A stretch of 64,000 nt of DNA from a virus (taxonomy: Duplodnaviria; Caudoviricetes). Numbering within the stretch: the first letter of the stretch is position 1; every line of letters begins with the position of its first letter. Positions 12,256-46,420 of this stretch are shown here, piece after piece. The position numbers and the translations under genes were made by a program. The stretch spans positions 219,623-283,622 of the IMG/VR virus record IMGVR_UViG_3300042013_000067; one strand, 5' to 3'. The notes below the pieces were generated by a model, which had not been told where the DNA came from, did no database searches, and saw only the letters and a list, made by a program, of their open reading frames with translations.

Positions 12256-12264
12256 GGGTATCAC

Positions 12265-23914: not shown

Positions 23915-24933
23915 TACTTCACCGATGCATCAATGAGTCGAGCGTAAGCTCGGATGATCGAATCAACATGACGCACGTGGAATGCGATCGTGCGATTCGG
24001 AATGTTGTAGACGGTCTTCATCAGATCGAACATCCGATCCTGTGCGTCGGTGTCGATGTCAGCGGACGGGTTGGCGATGGTCTGATCTTGGGCATCGTTC
24101 TGGTATTCTTCCAGAGTATCCATGTAAGCGTCGACGGCTTTGAAACCTTTGAGGTTAGCAAAATCGTTACGCAATTCAGCCAGCACATCGAGGGCCTCAG
24201 ACATTTTGATGATACCCTGAGCCGAGCTGGTGATCTCTGCCACGGTCAACGCAGGACGTTGGTACTGTTTGAGCTTGCTCGCTGCAAACGGTTTGTCGCT
24301 ATCGACCGACATGGTCAGGATGCGCTGAATATGGGTGTTACCGAACTGGGTGCGGTAGTCCACGGTCAGGCGTACCTGCGATCGCTCCAGAGCCTCGGTC
24401 ACTGCCTCAACTTCGAAAAGGTTCAGGTCCTCCACGTCGTTGATGTTAACCTTACGCATGATGCGTTGCAGTTCTAGGTCGACATGGCGCAAGTATTGCG
24501 AGTAGGCCTCAGACACCTTACGCAGTTTTGTGAGGAAGTCTTCGATGGGTGCAGACAGATCACCAGTTTCAATCACACCGTCGATACCGATGTAGTCGTG
24601 GCTACCGTCTAGACGCAGCTGTGTGCCTTGACGCAGAACGCGCTTAGACAACCAATCGGGATTCAGATAGGTCTTTTGCAGTGCTGCCACAATCGTGCTA
24701 CGACGACCAGTCCAGCCACCAGTCATGGCACCCACACCGGGCTTACCCGGTTCAGACAGCCACAGCCAGAAGCTCTTCAGCACATCGGTAAAGCCTTCTT
24801 GGGAAACGGTCGTGTCACCCTCTGTGCCAAACAACTGATCGATGTGTGCTTCAACCGGCACCACCGCATCGGTTGCGGCGATGGCGTTCTCATTAAGGTA
24901 GTTTTCAATATCCACTTTAGCCCCCTTGGGCAC
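23914..24933 (-). CDS. phiKZ-like internal head/virion protein (processed paralogue)
   Basis: VSQEGF motif; W...YL.P.WL.KR and C-terminal IDASVK shared with 23030-23914. Confidence 0.65.
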   Translation of the reverse strand: MPKGAKVDIENYLNENAIAATDAVVPVEAHIDQLFGTEGDTTVSQEGFTDVLKSFWLWLSEPGKPGVGAMTGGWTGRRSTIVAALQKTYLNPDWLSKRVLRQGTQLRLDGSHDYIGIDGVIETGDLSAPIEDFLTKLRKVSEAYSQYLRHVDLELQRIMRKVNINDVEDLNLFEVEAVTEALERSQVRLTVDYRTQFGNTHIQRILTMSVDSDKPFAASKLKQYQRPALTVAEITSSAQGIIKMSEALDVLAELRNDFANLKGFKAVDAYMDTLEEYQNDAQDQTIANPSADIDTDAQDRMFDLMKTVYNIPNRTIAFHVRHVDSIIRAYARLIDASVK

Positions 24934-24985
24934 GTTAAAACAATTGCTACATACTTGTTAATGTGGCGCTAACCGTGAATATCCA

Positions 24986-26812
24986 CTACACAGCAGGTGA
25001 AACATGACTCTCCCTCAGGTAAGCCCAGTCTGTGCCAATCACACCACCGGAACCTGTGGTTAATCGCTTATGCCCTATGAGTAGCATCGAGTTGGCATCA
25101 ATACCACCGTCCGTGCGTTCCACCAAGTCCCCTTGGATAAAGGAACCGGCGTTACCAGGCAACGCATCCGACACCAGCTTGATTCGACTACCGACAAAGC
25201 GAATGAAACTACCCATGCTGTTGATGGTGTTCATACCGCCAGCTGTGCGGGTTAACCACGGTATCCCATTAACTGCTATACCGTTATCGAACATGAACGT
25301 ACTACCTAGCGTGTGGATATCCACGTAGTGGGTATACGTCCCTGCTACGGTGCCACGGTAGAGTCGAATGATCCCATGGCGTGGGGATGTTGCAAAACCC
25401 ACGTTGAGCACGTTCATCTTGTCCGCTACAGCAGTAAGACTGGCTTCGGCGTTAACTGGGTTGCGACCAAGCGCCCGACCGGCGTCGTAGAGTACCTGTA
25501 CGTTGTAGTAATAGGTACCGACGGCTGCTTTCCATTGATCCACCCCAGTCTTGCGAGTACCCACGGTTTCCACACGTGATGACGCGATACCTTGGAACGC
25601 AGCATCAGCCATACGCACGCCGTAATCCAGCGATACGATGTTGGGGATGTCTACGACGCTTTTACGCGAGGTCAGGTATGAATAGTTGTTGAAGCTAGGG
25701 ATCGGTGTTACGCCGTCGGTTTGACAGATACGAATGCCAGCATGTTGATCTCGTTGGAAGTCACCCATCACGGTCCATTCATGGGCAACGTTATCCACGG
25801 CCAAAGAAACAGAGTCACCTTGCTGTACATGGAAACCCGACCATTCCATCAGTCCTTCGACGTTCCTGAAACGGGTATTCTGCAGCTTAACCGTATACCG
25901 CGACTCGTTTGAGGCCGAGGCAAACGTCCCTTGGGTGATGATTGGAATACGGGTATCTGGTAAGAACTGACTGTCCACTGTTACGTTAGACGAATCGTAG
26001 ATGTGCTGGGCGCGTTCGAAGTGACCGCCGATCAAGTTGATGTTGCCACACAGCTCGATCAAGTAATCCCCACCGATGCAGGCCTCTATGGTCCCACCTT
26101 GAATACCCCGAAGGCGCATGGCCTTCATGGACTCAGCTGTGGCCACTGTGTAAGGACAATGGATGTTCTTGGCCATGAAGCCGTCACCCAGACCCAGAAT
26201 ATCGAACTGATAGGCTAGGTTGTCTTGGGGATTCTCGGCAATGATGTCGCTTAAATGAAAGCTGTCGGTGTAGAAACCAGTCGGTCGCATGATGCTCTGG
26301 GTAAGACCATTGAATCGCATCTGCTCAAACTTACCTGAGCCAAAGCACTTGACGCCTTTTGCACCAGGGACTGCATTGGGGTTAGTAAAGTTGCAACGGC
26401 GAAAACCACCGGTGTTCATGTTCGGATAAGGTGTCGTCCAAGTAACACCATCAGCGGTGTTGATCATGAACAGGCACCCGTCCATGTATGCCCCACCTAG
26501 ATGGTAGAAGGATACGTTCCGTGATTCACAATCGACCCAGAATCCCGCTGGTAAGAATGCCGTAGTCGTTAACCCATAGTCGCCATCGGGAACGAAGACC
26601 GTAAGTTTACCTGCAGCTACTACCCGAGCAAAAGCCGGTTGCCAGTTAATACCATCAGCAGGGCGCCAGAAGTCAACCAGACTGGGTGTTTCATCCAGTC
26701 GACCTGCAATGGTCCGTTCGTTATACCCAACCTCCTGTGCCCCGTTCGGACCTAGTAACGCTAACAGGTTGGGTACGAGTTTTGCCAATTTAGTCATAGC
26801 ACCGATTGACAT
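24986..26812 (-). CDS. tailspike / depolymerase-like protein TSP1 (608 aa)
   Basis: Short N-terminal peptide TKLAKLVPNLL, NGA..VG junction, VFVPDGDY beta-helix entry, Asn/Gly-rich beta repeats. Confidence 0.75.
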   Translation of the reverse strand: MSIGAMTKLAKLVPNLLALLGPNGAQEVGYNERTIAGRLDETPSLVDFWRPADGINWQPAFARVVAAGKLTVFVPDGDYGLTTTAFLPAGFWVDCESRNVSFYHLGGAYMDGCLFMINTADGVTWTTPYPNMNTGGFRRCNFTNPNAVPGAKGVKCFGSGKFEQMRFNGLTQSIMRPTGFYTDSFHLSDIIAENPQDNLAYQFDILGLGDGFMAKNIHCPYTVATAESMKAMRLRGIQGGTIEACIGGDYLIELCGNINLIGGHFERAQHIYDSSNVTVDSQFLPDTRIPIITQGTFASASNESRYTVKLQNTRFRNVEGLMEWSGFHVQQGDSVSLAVDNVAHEWTVMGDFQRDQHAGIRICQTDGVTPIPSFNNYSYLTSRKSVVDIPNIVSLDYGVRMADAAFQGIASSRVETVGTRKTGVDQWKAAVGTYYYNVQVLYDAGRALGRNPVNAEASLTAVADKMNVLNVGFATSPRHGIIRLYRGTVAGTYTHYVDIHTLGSTFMFDNGIAVNGIPWLTRTAGGMNTINSMGSFIRFVGSRIKLVSDALPGNAGSFIQGDLVERTDGGIDANSMLLIGHKRLTTGSGGVIGTDWAYLRESHVSPAV

Positions 26813-26864
26813 ACGTTCACCTCAAAAGTTTAGGGGGTTAGGGGAGGCTAGCCTCCCCCTCCAG

Positions 26865-29201
26865 TTACACAATGACCCGGACGGTGTATCGTTCAAGTGT
26901 CATTGTGTCAGTACCCACCGCTAACTGACCTGTAATAGTTACAGCACACGCCGCTGCTGTATCAATAACAGACGTGTACGGGGCGTTAGCATTAGTACCA
27001 CCTTGCACTTGGCTACTAGCAGCTTCACCTAGTTGACTGTCGGCAGCACCTCTATTCTGGAGCCTTTTGATAAATGCAGCCGATGACGTAGCCGTGGCAG
27101 TAGTCGAGAAGAAGGCACCACCACCAAAGCGATAACGCATTGTTTTGGTGTTGGCGTTGTTACTGTAGCTGAACACCGCATCAACTTCAACGATACCGTT
27201 AAGGCCCATCAGGCCCGGCGGGATGTTTACAGTGACAAACGTGTGTTCGGTGGTGATCGTGCCGGGGTGTGGTCGTGCCACCGCACTGGTTTCCAGTACG
27301 ATAGTCTTAGGTTCAGAACCATAGCTACGAGCCAGTTCAACCCACGCAACACCATCAAACTGGAGCGTCAGTGTCCCCTTAGCGTTCTTCGGCGTAAAAT
27401 CACGACCATCTTGCAAGTAAATGTTACCGTTACTGGCAATGGTGGTCAGGTTGTTGGAGAACGAAAGCCGCAACACCTGTTTGGTCTTACCACCCAGAAT
27501 GTTGGTCACCGTCAGTGGTGTCGGGTTGTTGAAGTTCATGTTATCGATCGAGTCTGACGCCCATGCACCACCCATGGAAACGGTTGGTGTGGTTTGACCC
27601 GCGTTGCTGAGGTAGCCACCTGCCGCATAACGAGAGAACTGCTCGATAGCCGCATCGTTGAACTGCACCAGTGGGTTCTGGTTAAATACCGCGTCGGTAC
27701 ATTCGAACTTTTGGATAGCAGGCGCTGGGCCATACGAACAAAAACCGGTTCCATACAAGGCGCCGTATTCACGAACCGTACGGATCAACGGACGGATGAT
27801 GTGCATGTTGGTTACCAGTTCTGCGTTATACGCAAGACCGTTACCCATGGTGTTGAAGGTCATCCCTTCGATGGTGATACAGTCGCCGTCCTGGATATGG
27901 ATCGCGTAGCTGTCGTAGGACCCATCTTCGATCGTACCGCACCCGGTGATGTAGTTCTGCGAGAACTTGACGTTACGCACCAAATCGTTCGCCAACATCC
28001 CCGGTTCGTATTCTCTACTGATCCTGATGGCGTTTTTACGGGAACCCTCAAACTGTTGCCCGATGGAGGTAAACGAAATAACACCCCCATCCAACCACAA
28101 ACCATGGTGGTCAGCCAACGAGGTTTGACCCCCAATAAAGACCAGAGGACCGAACGTACCTTGCACGGCACCGCGACGACCAATGCGAATACCATAACCC
28201 ATCTTGTAGCAATCGACGTTGGTGTAGCACTTCATGTTCGTCTGGCCGAACGTACCGTCAGTGGTGATGTCCAGACCGACGCCGGTCCACGTACCGTCAC
28301 CAGTGGCGCCACCGCGGATCAATCCGTTGATGTGAGTCGCTTCCCACGTGGTCGACTCGACGATGCCATTACCAGCAGGGTTCTGCACTTTAACCGTGTA
28401 GTTCTGTAGTAGGATGCTACCTTGCGAACCTTGTAAGCGCAAAACGTCAGAAGTCGACGTACCGCCTACGAGGTTGAAGTTCACCAGCGAGAAGTACCCA
28501 CCCATCCCGGATGGGTTTTCCATGGAGAAAAGACCCTTGAGATCCACCAGTGGTGTATTCGACCCATCGATGTGCACAAAGGCAGTGCCGGGTTCTTCCA
28601 GTGCACCTGTCGCGTGCCCGTTACCATGGCCCATGATACTGACACGGCCAGCACGGTTTGGCCAATCTGGGTTGAGTACTGCATCGTAATACAGACGCAG
28701 TGTGTCAGTTAGGTACTTACGACCAGCCATTGGTCGCAGGATCGAGCCCTTGCGGTTGCAGAAAGACAGGGCCGCTTGCAGTGCCAAAGTATTCAACGTA
28801 CCCTGCTTGGTGTCCCAACTATAGTCACCCACAGCACCGAAGTACTCAGGGCGAACTTCATCCGTCAGAACCCGCTTCCAACGACCGGCACCTGCGTTAC
28901 CCGGTGGATTGACCACCATGCATCCATCGTGGGCTTCGTTGCTGTTACCTGCCCAGTACCAATCGCCTTCGCCCCCGTCACCCACGGTGTAGAAACCACC
29001 GACGTAGATGACTAAGGTTCGCCCTGCCGCTACTACCGGAATCGGCAATACCAAGAGCGACGCCATATTCAGAAGGGAGATCTTGGCCGAAGCCAAGTTT
29101 AAGCCAGCTGGACTCCCGATTTCCGCGGCGCCATCATTAGTAGCCAGCTTCAGTAGGTTGGGTACTACCTTTGCTAATTTCGTGAGCAGACCAACACCCA
29201 T
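26865..29201 (-). CDS. tailspike / depolymerase-like protein TSP2
   Basis: TKLAKVVPNLL peptide, GFYTVGDGGEG...GRWKRV...PEYFGAVGD module, beta-helix, C-terminal beta-sandwich; start revised to ATG 29201 (GGAGG SD). Confidence 0.8.
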   Translation of the reverse strand: MGVGLLTKLAKVVPNLLKLATNDGAAEIGSPAGLNLASAKISLLNMASLLVLPIPVVAAGRTLVIYVGGFYTVGDGGEGDWYWAGNSNEAHDGCMVVNPPGNAGAGRWKRVLTDEVRPEYFGAVGDYSWDTKQGTLNTLALQAALSFCNRKGSILRPMAGRKYLTDTLRLYYDAVLNPDWPNRAGRVSIMGHGNGHATGALEEPGTAFVHIDGSNTPLVDLKGLFSMENPSGMGGYFSLVNFNLVGGTSTSDVLRLQGSQGSILLQNYTVKVQNPAGNGIVESTTWEATHINGLIRGGATGDGTWTGVGLDITTDGTFGQTNMKCYTNVDCYKMGYGIRIGRRGAVQGTFGPLVFIGGQTSLADHHGLWLDGGVISFTSIGQQFEGSRKNAIRISREYEPGMLANDLVRNVKFSQNYITGCGTIEDGSYDSYAIHIQDGDCITIEGMTFNTMGNGLAYNAELVTNMHIIRPLIRTVREYGALYGTGFCSYGPAPAIQKFECTDAVFNQNPLVQFNDAAIEQFSRYAAGGYLSNAGQTTPTVSMGGAWASDSIDNMNFNNPTPLTVTNILGGKTKQVLRLSFSNNLTTIASNGNIYLQDGRDFTPKNAKGTLTLQFDGVAWVELARSYGSEPKTIVLETSAVARPHPGTITTEHTFVTVNIPPGLMGLNGIVEVDAVFSYSNNANTKTMRYRFGGGAFFSTTATATSSAAFIKRLQNRGAADSQLGEAASSQVQGGTNANAPYTSVIDTAAACAVTITGQLAVGTDTMTLERYTVRVIV

Positions 29202-29294
29202 ACACACCTCCAAAATGAAGGACCCTTATCCAGAGCCCCGAGTGAATCGTCAAGACCCTGAAACCAATATTTTTGGAAAGGGTCATACAACCTC

Positions 29295-31571
29295 CTATGT
29301 TTGACTACCGACAACGGTTCCGTCGGTATCACTGGTGGGAGCACCGCTCTTTATCCGCAGTCGCCCAGTCGCATCGACCCAGATATAGTAGCCGCCCAAC
29401 TTCAGCGGTTCAGCCCCGTTATATGACGAGGTAAAGGCCACAGCCCCTGTTAAGCAACGGATACCAACCCAGTCCGTCCCGGCAACGTGGTTGCTGCCTG
29501 TGGTCAAACGCCGCCAACCGAGCGTGGTGTAAGGGGTGCCGTTGTTGATCAGAGCAGGGGATTCGTTCAGCACTAGGTCACCCAGTGTGTAACTCCCAGT
29601 TGTAGGGAAGGTACTACCCCAACCAACGTGTCGAGTAGACAGCACGACCCTTAACCACTGGGCCTGTGGTGACAACCAGACTTGGTCGAATTGACCATCT
29701 GGGTTATCCATGTTAAGTTCTTTTCTGAGCAGTAGGTTCTTGCCGTAATAGCCTGGTTTGCTAGCGTATACGGACGACCATGCCGCTTCCGTGACTTCGT
29801 GCGTTCCTGGATCAACAGCGGAGTACACATCCGCCACGTAAGGTTGGTCAATCTGGGTGGTATAAACGTTGTTGTTGGCAATGCGACCAGACGACCGATT
29901 GCCAGCGGTCCCGGTGACCTGAAAACCGATGCTGTTGTCGATGACGTAGACGCCAGCCTCCGACACGTTGTTTAACCCTAGGTCAAACCCCTTGACCTGA
30001 TCGATAGCCACGTGGATCTGCGCATCTTTCATGTCGTTGTTTTTGATCTCCAATCCGGTGATCAAAGCAACGTTGATATGCGTCGCCGCGACAAAGCTAC
30101 CATCGGGTTGTTTACCGGCGCTCTCGAAGTGACAGTTCTGCACAGCTAGGTTGCGCATGTTACCAGACACACAGGACAGTGAACCTAGGGCATTGCTGCC
30201 AAAGCTCACGTGCTCGAATTGGACGTTGTCGCAGATGTTGCCATCGTGAATCAAGACCGCCCCTTTGCCCGCCATGCGTTGAATCAACCCATTGTGGATC
30301 TTGAGGTTGGAGCTGTTCCATTCGTCCCCGGCACCCGAATTCTTCGAACCGTACACCAAGCCATATTGGCCTTGTGGAAGTGAACCACCCCCAGAGATGT
30401 TAAACTTCTCTAGGTCAACGTTGAAGTAGTTCCGGATCTCGATTAGACGTGACGCCGCATTAGCGAACGAATCACACGAAATGCCGTACAGCTTCACCCG
30501 GTTGACGCGGTCCAGATAAATGCCGCCGATAGAGGTTGGGTTGTTTTGTGCTGTGATTCGGAAGTTGCTCAATTCAAATTGGGTGATAGGGGTGTTGTCT
30601 TCCGTGCCCAAGCCGGTGATGTTTAAGAAATGACCAGGTCCCGTGTAGAGCAATCGATTTCGTCGCGTGGCGCAGCCTGCAATACTCACGCCACGTTGGT
30701 CGGTGATCATCGTGTGGTCAACATAGACCTGCCCAGCAAAAGGCACGTTGAACAGCTCCCAAGGTAGCTCAATCACAAAACCATTGTCGGCTGCCGACTC
30801 TAGCGCTTTTTGGAACTTATCGGTGTTGACAATACCGGTGTTACCCGATGAGACACCAAACCGTTTGACGGACACGCGTTCACTCAGTACGTCCGCGACG
30901 TCCCCACTTTCGAGGCCTTCCCCTGGATAACTGGGGAGGTAACCTAAACTCTCGGCGCCTTGTGGTGACATCAAAGTCTGGCGTAAACTAACGTCTTCCG
31001 CCTGTAACAACTTACTTTGGTCTGTTGCCCACGTACTGGTAGTAAAGGGCAGTGCGGCGCGCACGGGTCGGTAGTTGACATCCAGATACCGCACCACCTG
31101 GGTTGTCCGCACCAGTTCGATACCGGCCGCATAGGGAACTTCAGCTTCCAGCCCCAAAGAGTCTAAGTAAGACAGGTAGTCTTGAGTGCGCTTTTCTTTC
31201 TCAGCCCCAAACAACGTATCGAGCTGTTCCCACATGTGATCATAACGGGCGTTGACGATGACACGCATCTGCTGCCCATCGGCGTAGGTTTCTGGGGACA
31301 CCAAGGTAAACTTGTGCATGGTGTCAACAGTGAACGCGTATTCAATTACGCCTTCAATCCACAGCGCCATTCCCGCGGTGGTGATAGTGGCATCACCAGA
31401 GATGACACCAACATCGTACTGGGTTTGACCTGCCACGTAAGTAAACGGGTATGCCGCGTTAACCTTGAGTTTGGCACCAGCAGCGACTATGGCGGCGGTT
31501 GCCTTTTGTTTTAACTCAGTGGTACTGGCTGCAAGATCAGCCACAGCCTGTGTCAATTGTTCGTAGGACAT
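29295..31571 (-). CDS. tailspike / depolymerase-like protein TSP3 (758 aa)
   Basis: MSYEQL N-terminus, tailspike head-binding-like segment (Y.AG....R..Q.V....V.YRP..LPFTT..W..D), SVKRFG beta-helix start, C-terminal WVDATGRLRIKSGAPTSDTDG. Confidence 0.82.
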   Translation of the reverse strand: MSYEQLTQAVADLAASTTELKQKATAAIVAAGAKLKVNAAYPFTYVAGQTQYDVGVISGDATITTAGMALWIEGVIEYAFTVDTMHKFTLVSPETYADGQQMRVIVNARYDHMWEQLDTLFGAEKEKRTQDYLSYLDSLGLEAEVPYAAGIELVRTTQVVRYLDVNYRPVRAALPFTTSTWATDQSKLLQAEDVSLRQTLMSPQGAESLGYLPSYPGEGLESGDVADVLSERVSVKRFGVSSGNTGIVNTDKFQKALESAADNGFVIELPWELFNVPFAGQVYVDHTMITDQRGVSIAGCATRRNRLLYTGPGHFLNITGLGTEDNTPITQFELSNFRITAQNNPTSIGGIYLDRVNRVKLYGISCDSFANAASRLIEIRNYFNVDLEKFNISGGGSLPQGQYGLVYGSKNSGAGDEWNSSNLKIHNGLIQRMAGKGAVLIHDGNICDNVQFEHVSFGSNALGSLSCVSGNMRNLAVQNCHFESAGKQPDGSFVAATHINVALITGLEIKNNDMKDAQIHVAIDQVKGFDLGLNNVSEAGVYVIDNSIGFQVTGTAGNRSSGRIANNNVYTTQIDQPYVADVYSAVDPGTHEVTEAAWSSVYASKPGYYGKNLLLRKELNMDNPDGQFDQVWLSPQAQWLRVVLSTRHVGWGSTFPTTGSYTLGDLVLNESPALINNGTPYTTLGWRRLTTGSNHVAGTDWVGIRCLTGAVAFTSSYNGAEPLKLGGYYIWVDATGRLRIKSGAPTSDTDGTVVGSQT

Positions 31572-34269
31572 GATACCTCCATGTTAGCAGTGTAAAGCTC
31601 CCCCTTGCGGAGGAGCTCGGGTAACGATTAACCAACGTACTAACTGGTCCCCATTAAGAAGCACGCCGCCAGAAGGAACCATCCCAGATCAACGTCTTGG
31701 CTTCTCCGGGTGCGAGCACGACCGACGAACCAGTGATCACAAGACCGGATGAGTTGTTGATGATGGTGATATTCTGCGTAGACGAGCTATGGTTATTCAC
31801 GACCAGCATTTGCCCGACAAAGGCACCCCGCGTGACGGAGTTAAGCTGTACTCCAGTCAGTGAGGTTTGCACCTTCACGAAGATGACGGGATCACCTGCG
31901 TTCTGAAGGTTGATACTGTTGTTCCCCGTGACCGTAGGGTTGCCATCCACATACGACCGCAGTCGCAATGGGTATTGCGTGCTACCCACACGGATTTTGG
32001 CGAAAGGCTTGGGGTTGGTAGCGATCAGACCTAAGAACGGCGTGCCCGTCCATGTGTCCAGATGTACGTCCCATTCAGAATTGATGTCGTAAGTGGCCGA
32101 CGAACTAGCCAGATACGACACGTGGGAAGCACCCGTGACGCGCAGCTTAGCCCGACACACCGTGAGGTCAGCGGTATGCTTGGCCAAGACGTGGCCAGAC
32201 CCAGTGTTGATGTACACATCACCATCTAAGCAATCAAGCACCGCACCTTCACCCAGCTCGAAAAGCTGACCACCGTTCTGGTATGGCGAGAAGTTCAGGT
32301 TCAGGTACTTCACGATGACAGACGAATACGTGGTCAAGATCACGTTATCGTGCGTGGTGTCTACATCCAAGTTGTCGATCACGACCTTGTTCTTGAACAA
32401 GGCATTCCCGGAGATACTGACCGGCAGGGCACCCTGTTCTGTCTTGATCCGCATCTGACCGATACTGAGGAAACTATCGGAGGTTTTGGACGCACACGAA
32501 ATGGCCAGACCCACCTTGGAGTTGATCACTTCCAGACTGTCAATACGAGCCGAGTTACCCCGGATCTGAAGGCCAGCACCACCAGTGGCATTACCCCGGT
32601 AGTCATTGAGTACGGTAATGGTCCCGAAATGTGGTTTGTAAGCCGGGCTGTGCGTGTCCACGCCGTTGGCGTTGCCCTGCATGACGACGTTGCGCACCTT
32701 CGGATACATGCTCCGACCACTTAGGTCCCAGCGGCCATCACCGGCTACCCGATTGGGTGTGGTGGTGGTGAAGCCGTGACGAGCGTGGTGGCTCACGATG
32801 GTATCGACCTGCGTACCAAAACTGGCACTGTCATTGAAGACGTACCCGTATTGCGCCTGTGTAGGTTCGTTGTGTAGGGCATCACCTGCTACGATACCCA
32901 CTTGGGCAAAGTAGCAACTGGTCAGGTTGAAGAACGTGGCGTTGAGGTCATTACCCTCATACGCACCTAACAACATGGGTTTGATGAACCCCCGTACGTT
33001 GAAGGCGGCTGCGTTATTGACGGTACTGTCATCAGTGTAGATATACGGACCGGTCTCGACGTGCATACGTGCTTTCGAGGGCTTGGCCAGCATGATGCCG
33101 GTGGTGTAGTTCTCGACCAACCCACCCGTGGCGTAGACGAAATCTCCGTCGACCTTACCCACTACAAACCACTCACCGATCATCTGGCTGCTGCCATCGG
33201 TGTCAGGCACAATATCATCACTGAAGATCTTGGCGATGTCACCCACAACAAAATCGTGGCCAGGTGCTTCCATCATCGACACGAAACTGTTCGTCGTACC
33301 ATCACCCAAGTTCACCGAAACTTTGGTTAACGATGTCACTGCCACCAGAGCCGAAGACAGGGTGTTGTAGAAGGAGAATGGTACGATGTTGCCGATCTGG
33401 TGGAACTTGGCACCATTGAAACTTACACGCAGACTATCGCCATCCCCTAGTGTGGTTACGATGGCAGCGTTAATGGCGTAAGTCTTGGAACTGTCGAATT
33501 GGACACAACGACCGGTCTCTACCCCATCAGCCAATGCGGCGATGATCGCCGGGGTATCCACCGCAGCGTCACCCCCAACTGCGCCATGCATCTCTGGCGT
33601 GATCCAGTTAATAGCGTCCTGTACTTTACCCCCTTGCTTCAGACTTACGATCTCTGCACCATTACTGCCGAGGGCTTGACGCAATGTAATATCTTCGGCT
33701 TGTATCAGTTTGGCCGAGTCTACAGCCCACGTGCTGGTGGTGAATGGCAGCGCTGAGCGCAACGGACGGTAGTTAACGTCTAGGTAACGCACTACCTGCG
33801 TAGGACGTACTAGTGAAATGCCTGCAACATACGGCACCTCAGCTTCTAGTCCTAGGGTATTCAGGTAATTCAAATAGTCTTGTAGGCGTTTATCCTTCTC
33901 GTCAGCGTACAGTGAGTCGAGTTGGTCGAACACATGGTCATAACGGGCATTGACGATAATCCGCATCTGCTGACCGTCAGCGTAAATCTCCGGCGTTAGC
34001 AGGGTGAATTTCTTCAGTGAGTCAACCGTAAAGGCGTATTCGATCCCTGCTTCAATCCACAGGACCATACCGGCAGTAGTGATCGTGGCATCGCCGGAGA
34101 TCACCTCGACGTCATACTGGGATTGTCCAGCTACAAAGGTAAATGGATAGGAGGCGTTTACCTTAATCTTGGCAGTAGCCGCGACTAAGACCTCCTCCAC
34201 CCTTTGTGCTAACTCGGCATTGCCGACGGCTAAGTCTGTTACCGACTGCGCCAATTGTTCATACGACAT
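30978..34269 (-). repeat. duplicated ~595-bp 5' module of TSP3 (30978-31571) and TSP4 (33676-34269)
   Basis: Colinear protein similarity, e.g. KVNAAYPFTYVAGQTQYDV vs KVNASYPFTFVAGQSQYDV. Confidence 0.85.
31654..34269 (-). CDS. tailspike / depolymerase-like protein TSP4 (871 aa)
   Basis: About 200-aa N-terminal module homologous to TSP3, ITPEMHGAVG..DT.AI pectate-lyase-3-like start, long beta-helix. Confidence 0.82.
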   Translation of the reverse strand: MSYEQLAQSVTDLAVGNAELAQRVEEVLVAATAKIKVNASYPFTFVAGQSQYDVEVISGDATITTAGMVLWIEAGIEYAFTVDSLKKFTLLTPEIYADGQQMRIIVNARYDHVFDQLDSLYADEKDKRLQDYLNYLNTLGLEAEVPYVAGISLVRPTQVVRYLDVNYRPLRSALPFTTSTWAVDSAKLIQAEDITLRQALGSNGAEIVSLKQGGKVQDAINWITPEMHGAVGGDAAVDTPAIIAALADGVETGRCVQFDSSKTYAINAAIVTTLGDGDSLRVSFNGAKFHQIGNIVPFSFYNTLSSALVAVTSLTKVSVNLGDGTTNSFVSMMEAPGHDFVVGDIAKIFSDDIVPDTDGSSQMIGEWFVVGKVDGDFVYATGGLVENYTTGIMLAKPSKARMHVETGPYIYTDDSTVNNAAAFNVRGFIKPMLLGAYEGNDLNATFFNLTSCYFAQVGIVAGDALHNEPTQAQYGYVFNDSASFGTQVDTIVSHHARHGFTTTTPNRVAGDGRWDLSGRSMYPKVRNVVMQGNANGVDTHSPAYKPHFGTITVLNDYRGNATGGAGLQIRGNSARIDSLEVINSKVGLAISCASKTSDSFLSIGQMRIKTEQGALPVSISGNALFKNKVVIDNLDVDTTHDNVILTTYSSVIVKYLNLNFSPYQNGGQLFELGEGAVLDCLDGDVYINTGSGHVLAKHTADLTVCRAKLRVTGASHVSYLASSSATYDINSEWDVHLDTWTGTPFLGLIATNPKPFAKIRVGSTQYPLRLRSYVDGNPTVTGNNSINLQNAGDPVIFVKVQTSLTGVQLNSVTRGAFVGQMLVVNNHSSSTQNITIINNSSGLVITGSSVVLAPGEAKTLIWDGSFWRRAS

Positions 34270-34287
34270 AATACCTCCAATTAGCTA

Positions 34288-36243
34288 TTAGTAAGCCCAG
34301 TAGTAGACTGCCGTCATATCCAAGGCTAGATCGGGGGTGGTGTCATTGGCTGCGACCAGACGAATTTGGACGTCGGTGGCATTGATGTCCATTTGCTTGT
34401 CGATTGCGATCCAGTGCCACTGGTTGTCATTGGGGATGATCTCCACAAATGTATTGACGCCATCGAATAGCTGAACCCGCTGGTTACCCAGATAGGTCGA
34501 TCCAGACCCTTTGAACCAACCACCACAATAAAGACGACGTCCCTTGTACTTATCCTTGTCCAAGATCACTTGGATACCGCTCACCCCAACGGCACCTGAA
34601 ACGATGTGTGCCCCAGAAATGTATTTACCTGTAGTCATCCCAACCGGAGTGATCTGGGTAGGTACGGCATTACCGCGAACCGAGAATCCATCTGGCACGC
34701 CAGTGGTCCATTTGGTAAACAGTGGGTTAACCGTCAGGTTTTCTATGTGCCTAGCGTGACCACGCGCTGGCGACAGAGCGTTGTTCATGGCGGACACGTT
34801 GATGTACGCACGGGCTCGGTCATTCATCCCGTCTAAGTAAGAGGAGGCGAAGCTCAGGTCACCGATGTTACCGATGCCTGTGGCGGTGTCTTCCATGGCG
34901 ATGCCATATCGGAGCATACCCGCACTGCCGCGCAGACGTACTTGGTCGAAGGACAAACTACGGCATTCACCACGGATGATGATGTCATCGGTTGGTACTA
35001 ACGCAGTCAGGCAGTTGTTGATAGAAATCAACTTGTTGATCACTACGTCGTCACCACCGTTGACCAATAACCCGCCGTTCCCCGCACCGTCAACTTGCAG
35101 TCGGTCAATGGTAATGGACGTGCCTTGAATCTCAGCGTTAATATCCTGACAACCCCAGACATCGACGTCACGGAAACGACAGGCCCCGCCGGTATAAAGG
35201 AAGCCACGTTCCCTAGCGAACCCGCAAAGAATCCGATTGGAGTCCCAATCGACGGCTTCAATCACCACGCCGTATTGGCCATCGCCGGCCAGCTGCGCAA
35301 GCTTCTCCTCTTCAGTACCGGTAGCTACACCGATGCCGTTACGAACAAAGACCTCATGGGAGGACCCTTCTTTGTGACCGGGTTTGACCCATAGTCCCGC
35401 ACCTAACCCTCGTTTATAAACGAAGACATTACGGATCTTAGTGCCTACCCGCTGCACGCCATCGGTGTCGCTACAGTGGATACCGTGGCCGGACACTTGC
35501 AATGCATTATCGATGATAAAACTATGCAGGCTGTTATTGAAGGCATTCGATCGAACCAGCACAGCATCGCCAGTGATTGCACCAAAACGTAGTGTGGCTA
35601 AACCACGTAAGTTACCCGTGACCACATGCTGTACCGACATGGCGTTACCCACATCCGTCTTCAGCTCGACACCAGACTTAATCTCTAGCGTCGTCAGACC
35701 CATTTCGTAGACTAGATTCGGAACTAAGGTAACATCACGACCACCACTGGCAGACGCAAAGTCGATGAATGCCTGCAACATATCCCCAGTCAGGCATATG
35801 AACTTGTTACGGAGGAGGAACTCGCCAATGGTCATTGGCGGACCGACCGGCTGAACCAAACCGATAAGCGGCGCGCCATCCGCGGCCAAGATCGCCATGT
35901 TGGTATTGGCAGTCTCTTCCGCAGCCAGTGCAGAATCGGCTGCTTCGAGTGCTGCCTGCCGAGCTTGCAGTGTTAAGCCTTGAGTTGACGACAAGGCAGT
36001 CAAGACATTCACGGCGAATGCCTCAGCCGAGTTACGCGATGCGACCGTCTGCTCGGTTGCTTCTTGGGTTGCTGCTACAGCGATATCAACGGCAACTTTC
36101 GCTGTGGTGGCCTGATCGGCTGCTGTTTGTGCCGTGTTGGAAGAAAGCTCAGCGGCTTCTACAGCTGTTATAGCTCGCTGAGTGAGTTCAGCATTGCTGG
36201 TGCCCAGATCCGTTACGGCCTGAGTCAAAAGTTCATACGACAT
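34288..36243 (-). CDS. tailspike / depolymerase-like protein TSP5 (651 aa)
   Basis: MSYELL N-terminus, Ala-rich coiled coil, DGAPLIG junction, beta-helix, C-terminal CBM-like domain. Confidence 0.75.
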   Translation of the reverse strand: MSYELLTQAVTDLGTSNAELTQRAITAVEAAELSSNTAQTAADQATTAKVAVDIAVAATQEATEQTVASRNSAEAFAVNVLTALSSTQGLTLQARQAALEAADSALAAEETANTNMAILAADGAPLIGLVQPVGPPMTIGEFLLRNKFICLTGDMLQAFIDFASASGGRDVTLVPNLVYEMGLTTLEIKSGVELKTDVGNAMSVQHVVTGNLRGLATLRFGAITGDAVLVRSNAFNNSLHSFIIDNALQVSGHGIHCSDTDGVQRVGTKIRNVFVYKRGLGAGLWVKPGHKEGSSHEVFVRNGIGVATGTEEEKLAQLAGDGQYGVVIEAVDWDSNRILCGFARERGFLYTGGACRFRDVDVWGCQDINAEIQGTSITIDRLQVDGAGNGGLLVNGGDDVVINKLISINNCLTALVPTDDIIIRGECRSLSFDQVRLRGSAGMLRYGIAMEDTATGIGNIGDLSFASSYLDGMNDRARAYINVSAMNNALSPARGHARHIENLTVNPLFTKWTTGVPDGFSVRGNAVPTQITPVGMTTGKYISGAHIVSGAVGVSGIQVILDKDKYKGRRLYCGGWFKGSGSTYLGNQRVQLFDGVNTFVEIIPNDNQWHWIAIDKQMDINATDVQIRLVAANDTTPDLALDMTAVYYWAY

Positions 36244-36315
36244 GAAACCTCCGATGTTTTCAGTTTGTTGGGTGGTCCACGGTATTAACCGATCGAGACC
36301 ACCCTACTGCGCGGA

Positions 36316-39225
36316 TTAAGTAGACCCGACGTTCGGCATGTCTCTGAAGATAGCCGTAGTACCAGCCAACCCAGCTTGGGTACATACCCAGCCCATTGGC
36401 GTGTTAGGTGCAGCACCGGGCTGCCAGATACGAGTACCCGCGGCGTAGTAGAACCCGTTAACTGGCTTCACCGTGGAGTGATGTTCGGTACAGCTAACCA
36501 CCACCCACTCAGCAGGTGATGCGCCAACCTGGAAAACCCGGAGCAACGTAACCATCCCGAACTGCGGGACTGTTAAGTTACCCAACCCGTTCAGAGAAAT
36601 ATTCCCTGTGTTGGTTAACGTAAGAGTGCCGTTCAGTGGCCGTATCATCACGGTTTCACCCGGCGCTGCTGTAGCGGTAAGGTTAGCCAACTTAACCGTA
36701 GGGTCTGGACCTGGGTTGAACACTGCGTACTTGTGGGCCTTTATATCCAGCGTCGTGCCATCGACAAGTAAGGTCTTGTTGGAAGCCGCTTTAAACTTAC
36801 CGAGGGTATTCCCCGAAGGCATGCCTTTTAGATTCAGCCCGATGATAGCGTTGAAGTCCACTAGGGGATCAAGGTAGTTATCCACGATGCCTTGGAATTC
36901 ATTGTCATGAGCGAACGACAGATACGAGTTACCACTGAGGGTGTAGATATAACCACTGGTAACCTCAGGGAGGAACCGAGTACCATCGGCTGCGTTAGCA
37001 AGGTGGTTCTTCGATACGTGTACCTGGGCGTTAGTGGCCAAGGTGAACAGTTTACCGATACCTTCAAACCAGCACTCTTGAAAGAAGATCGATCGGCAGT
37101 TCCGTGCATAAGCCCCGTATTGGGATTTCTGCATGGAGAACTCACTACCGAACGTGACGTTGATCGGCGACAGCACCGCAGTAGCTTGACCCGGTACGTG
37201 CGCAGGGTCTTCACCTTGGTTAGCCGCAGGATCAGCCATGGTCGATGGATCCGGATCCCAGTCCAACGTAACACAACGCCAAGCTGTAACCCCGTCACGG
37301 CCTTCAGCAGAACCACCACGGAAGTCGATCTGTCCATGCTGACCCGTCATACGCAGCGCTTCACCACCCGCAGGAACTTGGAAGAACACCTTGTCGAAGG
37401 TCAGGAACTGAATTGGACGTTTGTAGTTGTTGTTGGTGTAACCACCACGAGTCCAGCCACCTTTATTAAAGTTGGAGAACCGTACATCACGGAGTTCGGA
37501 GAACCACCAGCCACCGTGGAAGTAAGCATCATCCCATTGGGCCTTAGCATACAGACCCCATTGGTCGGCGTTCAAGGTAGGTTGGGCGTGTCCTGGAATT
37601 ACACTGCCTTGGAAGTGGATGCCCACGATGTGAGAAGACGACACCGCACCCTTATCGATCTCGACCATGCCATACGGCACAGCGGAACTGCGTGGCAACG
37701 CGGTGATATAGGTAGCACTCGAACCGTCACCTAGGTCACTGACCGAGTGCAGTTTAGTGAACACGCTATGCGGATAAGTACCGGCAGGGTATCTCACCCA
37801 ACCACCACCCTTGGATTTTACATAGGCCGTGGCTGCATTTCGGGCCGGAGTCCAGTCCCAAGTGCTAGGCGCCAGCGTTGGTTTGTCGATAATGCGATCC
37901 GCGTATTCCCAAATATTGACCGTGAGACCGGACAACATGAGGTTTACCGAGGTAATGGTATCCGCCACCACCGAACGGCGAAAGCCCAGTCCATCTGATG
38001 CACTCGGATCGGCTAATCCACTGATACCTTCCGCTACTACGGTTTCAGCTTCAGTCACTGCTTGTTGTGCTGCGTTGGCCGCAGCCTCAGCTGCTATTTT
38101 AGCAGTCACCGACTCCAGTGCATCAGCTTGGGTTTCGGTAACCGAGGACAAGGAGTCAATAGCAAACGCTTCAGCAGCATCTCTTGCAGCCACTGATTGA
38201 GTTACTGACTCTTGAGCCGTATTGGCCGCCGTGCCAGCCTCAATGACGAGATCTTCAACAGCCTCTTTGGCGGTCAGTGCTTCCAGTACGAAGCCCTGCG
38301 TCTCTTCGACCGACCCCAGCGCGGCAATGGCAAAGGCTTCAGCGGAGTCCCGTGCTGTAAGAGATTGTGCGGCTAGATCTTGGGTTGTGATGACGGCGGT
38401 ATCAACGACGGCTTTGGCGTCGGTGGCTTGCTGGGCAGCAGTTTGTGCCGTACCTGCTGCTGCTACAGCAGTGTCTCTCGCATCATCGACGCCCGTGGCT
38501 GCCTCTTGTGCTGCGGCAACTAAGGTTGTGATGTCACCGATGGTGGCAGCAGCCTCTTGTGCAGCTTGCATTGTAGCATCCCTAGCCGCTGTCACTAGGG
38601 GAATAGCCTCTTCAACAGTATCTGCGGCTGCTGTCACCATCGCCACAGCATCACCGATCTGACCCACCACGGTCATCGCTGTATTAGCAAACCCTTCGGC
38701 TGCTGTACGGGCGTCTACGGCCAATGTAGCCGAGTCTTGGGCACTGGCGGCAAAACCTTCTGCCGCATCTTTGGCTGCCGTGACTGTTCCGACGGTTTGC
38801 TGCACTTGTTGCGCGGCCTGCCGGGTCGTGGCGGCAGACTCATAGACCTCAAGTAAAACACGGTCCAATTCTTCTTGCAGGCCCTCGACAATACCGATAC
38901 TGACTTCGGTCCATTGTCCAACGCCTTCGTTATCGGCCACGAAAACACGGCCGTACATAGACGCATCGCGGGAGTACAGCGCATCAGTGCACTCCAGCCA
39001 TTGTTCTAAGGTGCCTACAAACCCATTGCTAACGGCAAACTCGTAGGCAGTAGCCGCCGCCTTGAGTTTACTGGATAGCACCCGGTAGTTCTTATATGCG
39101 CCGGTGGTGTCGCGCTTAATCACCTCTACGTATTCATCCCCAGACACGGTCTGTAGGATGGGAAAACCCGACAGTTTACTCGGGTTCACAATAGCGCCAG
39201 TTACCGGGTCAGTTGTAACGGTCAT
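36316..39225 (-). CDS. long tail fibre/tailspike TSP6 with coiled-coil stalk (969 aa)
   Basis: About 280-aa Ala/Thr-rich heptad stalk, VNIWEYA...WDWTPA...GGG.VRYPAGTY pectate-lyase-3-like beta-helix. Confidence 0.82.
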   Translation of the reverse strand: MTVTTDPVTGAIVNPSKLSGFPILQTVSGDEYVEVIKRDTTGAYKNYRVLSSKLKAAATAYEFAVSNGFVGTLEQWLECTDALYSRDASMYGRVFVADNEGVGQWTEVSIGIVEGLQEELDRVLLEVYESAATTRQAAQQVQQTVGTVTAAKDAAEGFAASAQDSATLAVDARTAAEGFANTAMTVVGQIGDAVAMVTAAADTVEEAIPLVTAARDATMQAAQEAAATIGDITTLVAAAQEAATGVDDARDTAVAAAGTAQTAAQQATDAKAVVDTAVITTQDLAAQSLTARDSAEAFAIAALGSVEETQGFVLEALTAKEAVEDLVIEAGTAANTAQESVTQSVAARDAAEAFAIDSLSSVTETQADALESVTAKIAAEAAANAAQQAVTEAETVVAEGISGLADPSASDGLGFRRSVVADTITSVNLMLSGLTVNIWEYADRIIDKPTLAPSTWDWTPARNAATAYVKSKGGGWVRYPAGTYPHSVFTKLHSVSDLGDGSSATYITALPRSSAVPYGMVEIDKGAVSSSHIVGIHFQGSVIPGHAQPTLNADQWGLYAKAQWDDAYFHGGWWFSELRDVRFSNFNKGGWTRGGYTNNNYKRPIQFLTFDKVFFQVPAGGEALRMTGQHGQIDFRGGSAEGRDGVTAWRCVTLDWDPDPSTMADPAANQGEDPAHVPGQATAVLSPINVTFGSEFSMQKSQYGAYARNCRSIFFQECWFEGIGKLFTLATNAQVHVSKNHLANAADGTRFLPEVTSGYIYTLSGNSYLSFAHDNEFQGIVDNYLDPLVDFNAIIGLNLKGMPSGNTLGKFKAASNKTLLVDGTTLDIKAHKYAVFNPGPDPTVKLANLTATAAPGETVMIRPLNGTLTLTNTGNISLNGLGNLTVPQFGMVTLLRVFQVGASPAEWVVVSCTEHHSTVKPVNGFYYAAGTRIWQPGAAPNTPMGWVCTQAGLAGTTAIFRDMPNVGST

Positions 39226-39412
39226 AGCACATCCTCCTTGGTGTTATGGGAGACGGTTAAGTCAGTCTCACATCTTCACTATACACTTCACCCGTTGATA
39301 ACGAACAAAGGTCACGAAGTCTCTGGTTAAAATGTTTATCACATATCTTTAGCGAGATTTTACATGAGCCCTTTATGGTCTGTTACCTTTATAACTAACA
39401 CGAGTTATTCCC

Positions 39413-42642: not shown

Positions 42643-42680
42643 GACATAGGCCCCTCCCGTAGTGGGAGGGGCTTTATGCC
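42643..42680. terminator. hairpin (RCATA/TATGY family)
   Basis: GACATAGGCCCCTCCC-gtagt-GGGAGGGGCTTTATGCC. Confidence 0.8.
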
Positions 42681-42681
42681 G

Positions 42682-43173
42682 TCAGAAGACGAAGTTAGCA
42701 GGGTTGTAATTCGCTTCCAGACGAACACGCTCTGGGCGTCGTACAGGTTGTTTAGGGCGTGTTACGATGCGGTAGGTGTGGATGCCAGCCATGATCGTCG
42801 CACGCTTCGTAGGAGACACCTTAAGCACCTCCATGGCCTCAGCCAAGATGCTGTCGATCTCTGCACGGTCGATATCAACCTTGGTGACTACGCCATTGAC
42901 TTCCACGTACTTGTAGTAAGTGTTGCACAAGCGATCATGCAACAACACCGCTTGGCCATAACTGCCCCAAGCAGGGATCAGTGCGTTGACAGGAAACGGT
43001 ACGGTGGCGCCGTCAGACAGTACACCCGCTTCGACATCCACCCATTCCTTGGAGCCTTCAGCTCCAATGTAGAAACGGAAGAACCCGAGGTTGCGCCAAT
43101 AGTCTTTGCCTAGAATCGCCGATGCTTGGGCATCATAGGTAATCGCGGCGTGTGCTTTAGTAAAACTACTCAT
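42682..43173 (-). CDS. DUF1353-like protein
   Basis: G..SDGATVP....L...G.Y..AV..HD.L....R.E.D.IL.EAM..L.V pattern; start revised to ATG 43173. Confidence 0.75.
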   Translation of the reverse strand: MSSFTKAHAAITYDAQASAILGKDYWRNLGFFRFYIGAEGSKEWVDVEAGVLSDGATVPFPVNALIPAWGSYGQAVLLHDRLCNTYYKYVEVNGVVTKVDIDRAEIDSILAEAMEVLKVSPTKRATIMAGIHTYRIVTRPKQPVRRPERVRLEANYNPANFVF

Positions 43174-46385: not shown

Positions 46386-46392
46386 CTGTTCA

Positions 46393-46420
46393 GGCATAGC
46401 CGGTGTCACCCACCGGCTTT
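46393..46420 (+). terminator. hairpin between nrdA and nrdB (family)
   Basis: GGCATAGCCGGTG-tcacc-CACCGGCT. Confidence 0.55.

Follow-up and report, generated by a model that had tools for sequence, protein, structure and literature searches.

How does a jumbo phage whose closest relative is Pseudomonas phage Noxifer come to carry six spike genes in a row, and how could six different spikes be mounted on one virion? The locus that raises these questions occupies positions 24986-39225 of a 64,000-nucleotide window, the last 64 kb of the IMG/VR record IMGVR_UViG_3300042013_000067, which is 283,622 bp long, has direct terminal repeats and is rated 100% complete. Here six consecutive minus-strand open reading frames (ORFs) of 608-969 aa encode tailspike proteins, TSP1 to TSP6. 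We suggest that this cassette specifies a multi-receptor adsorption organelle that is built in tiers from modular spikes and presents up to six heads per fibre, and we give this reading a probability of roughly 60%; physical branching and six specificities are what we infer from the sequences. The features on which the argument draws are listed here in window coordinates (G001, L021/L022 and L024 are related jumbo-phage loci described further on).

24986..26812, minus strand: TSP1, 608 aa, TKLAK-class spike; 85-86% identical orthologs in G001, L022 and L024
26762..26812, minus strand: TKLAK peptide of TSP1, MSIGAMTKLAKLVPNLL
26865..29201, minus strand: TSP2, 778 aa from ATG, TKLAK-class spike; 87-91% identical orthologs in G001, L022 and L024
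29151..29201, minus strand: TKLAK peptide of TSP2, MGVGLLTKLAKVVPNLL
29295..31571, minus strand: TSP3, 758 aa; MSYE helix, module, body with Cap_depo-type C-terminus
30942..31466, minus strand: candidate branching module of TSP3, aa ~36-210 (AlphaFold2 model, phmmer)
31467..31571, minus strand: MSYE helix of TSP3, aa 1-35 (this and the other MSYE helices from BLASTP and a codon table)
31654..34269, minus strand: TSP4, 871 aa; MSYE helix, ~170-aa module, depolymerase-like body, Phage_depo_C (aa 789-868)
33649..34164, minus strand: candidate branching module of TSP4, aa ~36-207, 72% identical to the TSP3 module
34165..34269, minus strand: MSYE helix of TSP4
34288..36243, minus strand: TSP5, 651 aa; MSYE coiled-coil adaptor and neck (aa 1-~135), predicted beta-helix (aa ~144-466), C-terminal domain
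36151..36243, minus strand: MSYE helix of TSP5
36316..39225, minus strand: TSP6, anchor spike, 969 aa; gp145/146-type anchor, coiled-coil stalk, beta-helix body
36319..38025, minus strand: TSP6 body, aa ~401-969 (AlphaFold2 and Foldseek)
38026..38850, minus strand: TSP6 stalk, aa ~126-400 (read from sequence)
38851..39225, minus strand: TSP6 anchor domain, aa 1-125 (tblastn, phrog_15433)

The original prediction had described six adjacent minus-strand spike genes with unrelated bodies, and both the positions of the ORFs and an all-against-all BLASTP comparison agree with it. The N-termini fall into classes. TSP3 and TSP4 are 72% identical over their first 207 aa, in line with the ~200 aa expected for this pair; TSP3, TSP4 and TSP5 share the predicted MSYE N-terminus (58-61% identity over aa 1-31); and TSP1 and TSP2 are 59% identical over their first 29 aa. 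The remaining parts are unrelated, except for Ala-rich coiled-coil repeats in TSP5 and TSP6 and a C-terminal motif of ~45 aa in TSP1 and TSP3. The short peptide foreseen for TSP1 and TSP2, TKLAK[L/V]VPNLL, is shared as claimed but had been given too small an extent, as the motif starts at the initiator Met and is ~17 aa long. A tblastn search with N-terminal pieces detected none of these motifs in the rest of the 283-kb genome. The same peptides recur as spike N-termini in eight further loci, where the conserved residues show synonymous codon variation, and the sharing of N-termini exceeds chance. The six genes are separated by 18-93 bp, and each has a GGAGG ribosome-binding site 6-9 nt upstream of its ATG. 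The ORF listed for TSP2 (26865-29213, 782 aa) opens with a TTG; the true start is most likely the ATG at 29201, giving 778 aa, because the TTG falls inside a GGAGG ribosome-binding site and the public gene call also begins at 29201.

Searches with the N-terminal modules and with the bodies recovered four further jumbo-phage loci, whose genes run as follows (lengths in aa).

G001, a 307-kb IMG/VR genome: anchor 1177, then MSYE 674, 253, MSYE 616, MSYE with module 877, MSYE with module 831, TKLAK 782, 625, 609
L021/L022, a 19.5-kb contig with flanking genes as in the window: anchor 1077, then MSYE-esterase 660, 253, MSYE with module 880, 835, TKLAK 778, 581, 608
L024, a 317-kb contig: anchor 1159, then MSYE 623, 623, 588, MSYE with module 885, TKLAK 778, 609
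L013, a 92-kb contig in which the locus ends upstream: four MSYE spikes, then MSYE with module 901, TKLAK-like 566, 605

The class order, from anchor through MSYE and MSYE with module to TKLAK, is invariant in these cassettes of 6-8 spikes; G001, L021/L022 and L024 repeat the order of the window in full and L013 from MSYE on, so that a look for synteny in related genomes, proposed with the original prediction, gave a positive answer. The G001 cassette lies directly after a gp144 endolysin homolog, within the gp145/146 locus. The claim that such a cassette is atypical for phiKZ-like phages holds in that it is absent from Noxifer and that megablast against GenBank phage records gave no nucleotide match; it does not hold for uncultivated relatives, which carry cassettes of the same design, and the design is therefore a feature of a clade. 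We found no published description of it. In L022 (1465-2226) and in G001 (C1:135616-136377) there is also a conserved 253-aa protein (MPISNYLKLGD...), which in these two cassettes follows the MSYE esterase spike; it is absent from the cassette in the window and may serve that spike as an accessory protein or chaperone.

Behind these adaptors the bodies have moved. The TSP6 body recurs, 80-89% identical, behind an MSYE adaptor of ~45 aa in G001 and L024; the TSP3 body (89% identity over 555 aa) stands behind a TKLAK peptide in the 581-aa spike of L022; and the adaptor and neck of TSP5 carry a GDSL-esterase body in L021. Sixty homologs of the TSP6 body are carried by at least five different N-terminal adaptors, and bodies of this type occur behind N4-like anchors, T7 gp17-type anchors and other N-termini as well as in a Pseudomonas prophage. 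The N-terminal classes thus behave as exchangeable adaptors, and bodies have been exchanged between the classes in related phages. Tandem paralogs often have 5' ends in common, and the shared N-termini might on that account be mere traces of duplication, or recombination 'homology boxes' with no function in docking. Recombination junctions do lie just behind the adaptors, for example at the motif LGY[LF]PSYPG, from which TSP3 and the 581-aa L022 spike (P0210) are alike onward. We nevertheless find this explanation scarcely credible: what is conserved is the amino-acid sequence, in the face of extensive synonymous change, and not DNA homology; phage families with no other sequence in common conserve the peptides; and unrelated bodies stand behind identical adaptors, which is the opposite of what simple duplication predicts.

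The candidate for attachment to the virion is TSP6. Residues 13-109 of TSP6 have tblastn matches to gp145/146-type proteins in 70 Pseudomonas jumbo-phage records, at 33-52% identity to PhiPA3 gp165 (annotated 'similar to gp145 in phiKZ'), a Phabio tail fibre, D6, Psa21 and Noxifer gp246; PhiPA3 gp164, gp166 and gp167, annotated as similar to gp145/gp146, match as well. The TSP6 N-terminus also matches phrog_15433 (E 5e-15) and shows the pattern of a conserved domain of ~80-110 aa, K.SG...L...SG.E..E......G...NYR...SK.....AY..AV.NGF.GT...W. By homology, the first ~110 aa of TSP6 are a fibre anchor of the phiKZ gp145/gp146 type, conserved in chimalliviruses, and the unique N-terminus claimed for this protein has to be given up, while the long stalk claimed with it is present. 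In phiKZ, gp145/146 are described as putative tail fibres, and transposon insertions into them are not tolerated (bioRxiv 10.1101/2025.11.23.690004); the main text of the phiKZ virion atlas makes no mention of them (PMC13250141). Two other domains were sought at E<=0.1 in the six proteins and gave no match: the Goslar fibre domain DUF7941 (PF25613, Pfam search, also with TSP6 aa 1-130 alone) and Tail_spike_N (PF18668, the N-terminal domain of TSP1/gp66, hidden Markov model search), which is resembled in fold only, by aa 137-192 of the module described below (Z 5.1-5.7). DUF7941 genes do occur upstream of a related spike of the MSYE-with-module class in one Logan contig.

The TSP6 stalk is an Ala-rich coiled coil of ~275 aa with repeated RDSAEAFA..L..V.ETQ units, 40% identical to the neck of TSP5 over 105 aa. 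It is longer in the TSP6 orthologs of L021 (1077 aa), L024 (1159 aa) and G001 (1177 aa), each of which is the first gene of its cassette. We considered this stalk as a hallmark of branched systems and dropped the idea; it is not diagnostic, because another genome, G002, has a homologous anchor and stalk without MSYE spikes.

Comparison with Noxifer bears on this anchor as well. A conserved virion protein is 83% identical to its Noxifer counterpart and 45-49% identical to those of PhiPA3- and phiKZ-type phages, and in tblastx the window is collinear with Noxifer gene by gene except for the cassette, one deletion and one inversion. These two findings, together with the classification of Noxifervirus in the family Chimalliviridae, make the earlier label of a phiKZ-like jumbo phage correct, and by these sequence measures Noxifer is the closest relative of the source phage. 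Relative to Noxifer the cassette is a clean insertion of 14.4 kb (24946..39400) between the homologs of gp218, which ends at 24945, and gp217, which starts at 39401, with tblastx junctions at Noxifer 269924 (window 24945) and 269991 (window 39401). In the Noxifer annotation the gap from gp218 to the plus-strand gp217 is only 108 bp, and no spike cassette is present there. Two Noxifer genes make up the deletion, gp246, annotated as 'tail sheath' (161 aa), and gp245, annotated as 'tail fiber protein' (291 aa), both of which are cleanly absent at the syntenic site, window 8343-8353, where homologs of gp247 and gp244 flank the gap and window 8343 abuts 8344. The gp145-like anchor gp246 has its sole match in the window 31 kb away, in the N-terminus of TSP6. 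Most simply read, the accessory small fibre of Noxifer was exchanged for a six-spike organelle with the same kind of anchor.

Elsewhere in the genome (107897-113655) the canonical fibre locus is kept, with a gp144-like endolysin, a 596-aa protein whose N-terminus shows a similar short motif, and a fibre of 994 aa in which AY..A..NGF.GT motifs recur along with collagen-like repeats. The genome thus retains a gp144-gp145-gp146-like locus, and the cassette therefore adds to that fibre locus and does not replace it. The two genes adjoining the cassette (23030-24933, homologs of Noxifer gp219/gp218) were considered as docking partners and set aside, because Noxifer has them without a cassette and one of them weakly resembles phiKZ internal head proteins: the product of 23914-24933, the gp218 homolog, has a weak Pfam match to phiKZ_IP (E 9e-4, below the curated cutoff). 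The listed GTG start of this gene has no obvious ribosome-binding site.

The second tier would be formed by the MSYE spikes. Across 15 genes the MSYE helix conserves Y3, L6, V10, L13, N17 and L20, with varying synonymous codons. These positions are those of an a/d heptad with a buried Asn, which indicates a canonical coiled coil from the second residue on, and AlphaFold2 predicts a helix over aa 3-35. In the window, L021, G001 and L024 the gp145-like anchor with its coiled-coil stalk lies directly upstream of the MSYE genes. We suggest that the MSYE coiled coils would join TSP3, TSP4 and TSP5 to the TSP6 fibre, most likely by packing on its helical stalk or on one another in a helical bundle. 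Attachment through a bundle is plausible because gp131-type fibres of phiKZ are held in this way, by a six-helix bundle of N-terminal segments from four proteins, gp131/133/134/135, according to the virion atlas (PMC13250141). This tier is the least secure part of the model.

TSP3 and TSP4 continue from the MSYE helix into a module of ~170 aa, the candidate socket of the third tier. In the AlphaFold2 model of the TSP3 module (predicted local distance difference test score, pLDDT, 81.9) a beta domain (aa 38-107) is followed by a helix (aa 108-139) and a second beta domain (aa 145-200). An exhaustive phmmer search with TSP3 aa 1-235 returned 222 representative proteins at E<=1e-3, about 28 of which span the whole module; an MSYE-type N-terminus begins 10 of the best 150 matches, nine of them with the whole module, and most other whole-module proteins have an N4-like anchor (MSNRR.. 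DFPRNEAGLVD..) at their start. Hundreds of spikes have aa 113-215, the second half of the module, as a common neck. The whole module was not detected in 50,697 GenBank phage records, and no Pfam family covers it, either here or in homologs. A profile built on 29 module sequences (alignment A1, which includes the TSP4 module) gave two chance-level picornavirus VP3 matches (E 0.03) among all PDB sequences and none to gp10, TSP4-N or gp66, and Foldseek with the module model gave no PDB match at E<=1e-3. In a comparison with 48,161 chains the best match of the first domain was residues 187-250 of CBA120 TSP4-N (Z 7.3, root-mean-square deviation 2.0, 62 aa), a score to be read against the 7-8 typical of unmatched models; the predicted fold of aa 137-192 resembles the N-terminal domains of CBA120 TSP1/TSP3 and of G7C gp63.1 (aa 64-155) at Z 5.1-5.7; and among predicted viral structures, spikes of the N4-like and G7C-like kinds come closest (E 1e-6 to 1e-4). 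These model-based matches are weak but consistent in theme.

The evidence for a pairing of this module with the TKLAK peptide comes from their neighbourhood. The peptide consensus (alignment A2), M-[SGA]-[ILV]-G-x-[LIM]-[TA]-K-L-[AS]-K-x-[VAG]-x-x-[LV]-[LFIV], is encoded at its conserved residues by many synonymous codons, and selection therefore acts on the peptide and not on the DNA. In eight of nine loci with a module-bearing spike, which belong to three phage types including N4-like podophages, the next spike gene has a TKLAK-type start; among 314 spike-like proteins fetched by other criteria such an N-terminus occurs in two, both of them cassette members. In two N4-like contigs and in one integrase-bearing 74-kb contig, the module-bearing spike is directly followed by a spike starting MGIGVITKLSKY, MSIGVITKLAKI or MAIGQITKLAKY. 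The module and the peptide are thus not specific to jumbo phages, as the adjacent pair is found in N4-like podophage contigs, and this adjacency points to a plug and socket. The proposal that the docking peptides were undescribed has fared well: we found no description of either one, and for TKLAK a tblastn search with the 40-aa N-terminus of TSP1 (E<=10) had no match in the same 50,697 GenBank phage records. A word-indexed search of 5.8 billion proteins with TSP1 aa 1-40 returned only the query itself, by a method too insensitive for a 17-aa motif. Complex prediction with three modules and three TKLAK N-termini, run with our own alignments and without controls, scored 0.00, which speaks neither for nor against binding.

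We considered whether each adaptor class (gp145-like, MSYE and TKLAK) could instead dock directly on the baseplate, at different sites or in competition for the same one, with the ~170-aa module as a neck or spacer and mosaic virions as the result. There would be room for such an arrangement, since the phiKZ and Goslar reports describe twelve fibre sites and many unassigned proteins at the phiKZ baseplate periphery (PMC13250141) and clouds of accessory fibres on Goslar virions (PMC13742148). The numbers of module-bearing and TKLAK spikes also vary from locus to locus (2:2, 2:3, 2:3, 1:2, 1:2, and 1:1 three times), the exceptional locus L025 has a module-bearing spike without a TKLAK neighbour, and the second half of the module serves as a neck in hundreds of single spikes. 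These features fit parallel docking, which we consider unlikely on two grounds. In N4-like podophages, an integrase-bearing phage and jumbo myophages alike, the TKLAK peptide is accompanied by the first half of the module; the only constant partner of the peptide is the module-bearing spike, because the tails and baseplates of these phages are unrelated. Furthermore, Noxifer has the baseplate genes of the window but none of these spikes. In L025, an 84.7-kb non-jumbo contig, the region 7010-12424 encodes a 935-aa GDSL-lipase protein and then an MSYL-with-module spike of 807 aa, with no TKLAK spike downstream.

The variable ratios and L025 also weigh against the tiered organelle itself, as do several further points. 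The conserved MSYE residues are those of the helix's own coiled-coil core, so that they could reflect trimerisation rather than docking. The Z of 7.3 for the module lies within the common range of the tool, and no profile hit links the module to T4 gp10, CBA120 or G7C proteins. G002 has a TSP6-like stalked anchor without MSYE spikes. As regards the heads, the TSP3 body reaches an hhalign probability of 15% with no PDB profile hit, and the support for the folds of TSP1 and TSP2 is indirect.

Some of the spikes, especially those of the TKLAK class, might not be virion proteins at all but soluble depolymerases, which lysis would set free to clear exopolysaccharide or biofilm away for the progeny, and TSP1 and TSP2 indeed have no recognisable anchor domain. 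Their 17-aa peptide, however, is conserved across distant phages and adjoins a module-bearing spike, a feature for which a free enzyme would have no evident use; signal peptide logic is lacking; and the genes form one co-oriented block with the anchored spike, with tight spacing and strong ribosome-binding sites. We judge this possibility improbable.

Returning to the tiered organelle, we suggest the following assembly. TSP6 trimers would dock at the baseplate periphery through their gp145-like domain, in the slot of the Noxifer gp246/gp245 fibre, and the MSYE spikes would join this fibre as described above. The module of TSP3 and TSP4 would then act as a branching socket into which the M-x-IG-x-L-TKLAK peptide of TSP1 and TSP2 plugs. 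The result would be a single fibre with up to six different polysaccharide-binding or -degrading heads, which would widen or secure host recognition, probably on Pseudomonas, and recombination behind the conserved adaptors would allow specificities to be exchanged. In its most specific form, a three-tier tree of 6-8 heads on a gp145-type fibre across this jumbo-phage clade, held by an MSYEQL zipper and by a beta-sandwich socket of ~70 aa with a 17-aa plug, the second pair being shared with N4-like podophages and hence a portable connector for phages whose tails are unrelated, the model is tentative, and we would put its chances at slightly short of even.

How well do the heads themselves fit this picture? 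All six had been predicted to be beta-helix proteins, and the outcome is uneven. The TSP6 body (aa ~400-969; pLDDT 92.2, 54-sequence alignment) is modelled by AlphaFold2 as a right-handed beta-helix, and Foldseek gives 67 PDB matches at E<=1e-3 (E down to 2.6e-6), the top rows of which are all beta-helix enzymes or spikes; the nearest folds are the AlgE4 mannuronan epimerase module and the HK620, Sf6, AS12, Pam1 and CBA120 TSP2 spikes. A beta-helix is supported for TSP5 by its Atlas model, in which aa 144-466 align to Beta_helix clusters (template-modelling score 0.71 by target); this body is 81% identical to that of the 588-aa MSYE spike in L024. For TSP4 the prediction is upheld by relatives among Klebsiella phage spikes and by the only Pfam match in the six proteins, Phage_depo_C (PF25692, E 3e-14), with a further match to phrog_29932 (E 2e-80). 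Over ~650 aa this body shows 47% identity to the spikes of Klebsiella phages RCIP0023, cp21, K5lambda5 and P252, and for the K5-2 and K5-4 spikes the identity is 30-31%, some of these phages being named for K5 capsule types; an 81% identical ortholog of TSP4 is present in L021.

TSP1 and TSP2 are suggested to be beta-helix spikes by their neighbours in the feature space of a language model, pectate-lyase-like spikes carrying PF12708 (0.95 and 0.91, respectively), and TSP2 also by 50% identity of its aa 107-623 to Klebsiella podophage fibres. A match of TSP2 to the cultured N4-like Achromobacter phage Axy04 was rejected as a counterpart of its N-terminus: it is internal, at aa ~206-328 of an 892-aa appendage protein, and is not a TKLAK plug. 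For TSP3 the predicted fold was not established. Six close homologs of its body were found and no more; the hhalign alignment with the TSP6 body profile is confined to the N-terminal cap, and against PDB sequences there is no profile hit. A close homolog of this body bears the label 'compost metagenome', and compost was also the source of Noxifer. Searches of PDB sequences by phmmer with TSP3, TSP4, TSP6 and the profiles A1 and A4 gave nothing meaningful. With PF12708-bearing proteins TSP3 shares only its C-terminal 50 aa, of Cap_depo type. This segment (aa 707-758, window 29298-29453) corresponds to Cap_depo, PF26986, in homologs, and the last ~52 aa are 55-64% identical to tail-protein C-termini of N4-like Pectobacterium, Kosakonia, Klebsiella and Enterobacter phages; on these matches, it appears to be a small module that is itself mobile. 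Pectobacterium phage phiA41, tried as a related cassette, was rejected, as it shares only these last ~50 aa of TSP3 and has a single spike at that place.

Two further features of the window touch expression and synteny. A scan for sigma-70 promoters and terminators showed no enrichment (6 promoter-like sites against 13.4 expected), a result that says little about a phage with RNA polymerases of its own. The intergenic gaps 36244-36315, 31572-31653, 29202-29294 and 26813-26864 each hold a GC-rich hairpin without a T-tract, for example GGGTGGTC...GACCACCC, GAGCTCCTCC...GGGGGAGCT and GGGGAGGCTAGCCTCCCC, and these may be signals for RNA stability or for termination by the phage polymerase. At 42649-47636 a block of ~5 kb, with genes for a DUF1353 'tail assembly chaperone' homolog, dihydrofolate reductase and the alpha and beta subunits of ribonucleotide reductase, lies in the opposite orientation to its Noxifer counterpart, gp209 to gp002.

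The principle of the proposed organelle is not new. Anchors, branching domains, conserved N-terminal peptides and the swapping of bodies are established for G7C, CBA120, K1-5/SP6, KP32-type phages and Klebsiella jumbo phages (PMC6872550, PMC9700779), and the cassette has the make-up by which an anchor-branched system of several receptor-binding proteins (RBPs) is recognised by Latka et al. 2019 (PMC6872550), namely an anchor (TSP6), MSYE or TKLAK N-termini on TSP1-5 and six contiguous genes. A close parallel to the module and peptide is offered by the Escherichia coli N4-like phage G7C, in which the anchored spike gp66 has an internal branching domain and the second spike, gp63.1, encoded next to it, attaches by its N-terminus (Prokhorov 2017, cited after PMC6872550). 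N4-like contigs have the module natively, N4- and G7C-like spikes come nearest to it among predicted viral structures, and its second subdomain resembles gp63.1 aa 64-155 (Z 5.1). In contrast to G7C, however, the module has no sequence relation to G7C proteins or to T4 gp10, the plug would be a 17-aa peptide and not a folded domain of ~130 aa, and in the jumbo phages the module spike would itself be a passenger with an MSYE adaptor rather than the anchored protein, which adds a tier.

CBA120 and ViI-like phages with TSP1-4 likewise arrange beta-helix spikes as a hierarchical tree on the baseplate of a myophage, with one anchored spike and internal off-axis docking domains; TSP2 and TSP4 of CBA120 carry T4gp10-like XD domains, and the best structural match of the first module domain falls in TSP4-N (187-250; Z 7.3, within the noise range and with no sequence homology). 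The cassette differs in its anchor, a gp145-like domain with a long coiled-coil stalk, in its 6-8 spikes and in its three adaptor types. A conserved N-terminal peptide of 7-29 aa on an anchor-less depolymerase, encoded after a docking-domain RBP or adaptor, is described for Klebsiella phages of KP32 group A and for the second RBPs of K1-5/SP6 (PMC6872550); here the peptide sequence and the docking module are different, and the carrier is a jumbo myophage of the nucleus-forming type. The Klebsiella jumbo phages PhiK64-1/RaK2 and phiKp24 have many-spike cassettes that reuse anchors, branching domains and short peptides, with bodies swapped by recombination (PMC9700779, PMC6872550), but they are not chimalliviruses and their adaptors are unrelated to those of TSP1-6. 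The Klebsiella jumbo phages RCIP0023 (350 kb) and Centimanus (300 kb) hold relatives of the TSP4 body only.

Within the phiKZ group, phiKZ resembles the source phage in the homology of the TSP6 N-terminus to the gp145/146 family and in fibres that are joined by N-terminal helix bundles (PMC13250141). In contrast, phiKZ-type phages in GenBank lack MSYE and TKLAK spikes and have between one and three gp145/146-like fibres, and the virion structures of phiKZ and Goslar show gp131-type fibres and DUF7941 filaments, with no spike cassettes in the passages on tail fibres and host recognition (PMC13250141, PMC13742148). New, then, are such a cassette in the Chimalliviridae, the fusion of a gp145-type anchor to a beta-helix spike and the three adaptor tiers. 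We also infer, as a further novelty, a docking pair that has no sequence relation to T4 gp10-type domains and is common to podophages and jumbo myophages, so far in metagenomes only. Because the principle of anchor, branching domain and peptide was already established, the advance lies in the parts and in their phylogenetic reach, not in the concept.

These parts have implications for how chimalliviruses recognise their hosts. Adsorption is a main barrier to their host range, and no part of the virion structures of phiKZ and Goslar is less well resolved than the receptor-binding machinery. On the simplest reading of this locus, a Noxifer-like phage swapped a small fibre for a six-spike cassette, and a gp145-type anchor is able to carry a beta-helix spike; receptor-binding bodies, in turn, are passed among three adaptor classes as well as between podophages and jumbo myophages. 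Should the TKLAK peptide and the module indeed be plug and socket, they would constitute a compact and widely distributed connector, which would improve the annotation of thousands of 'hypothetical' metagenomic spike genes and would provide a plug-and-play interface for changing the host range of chimalliviruses.

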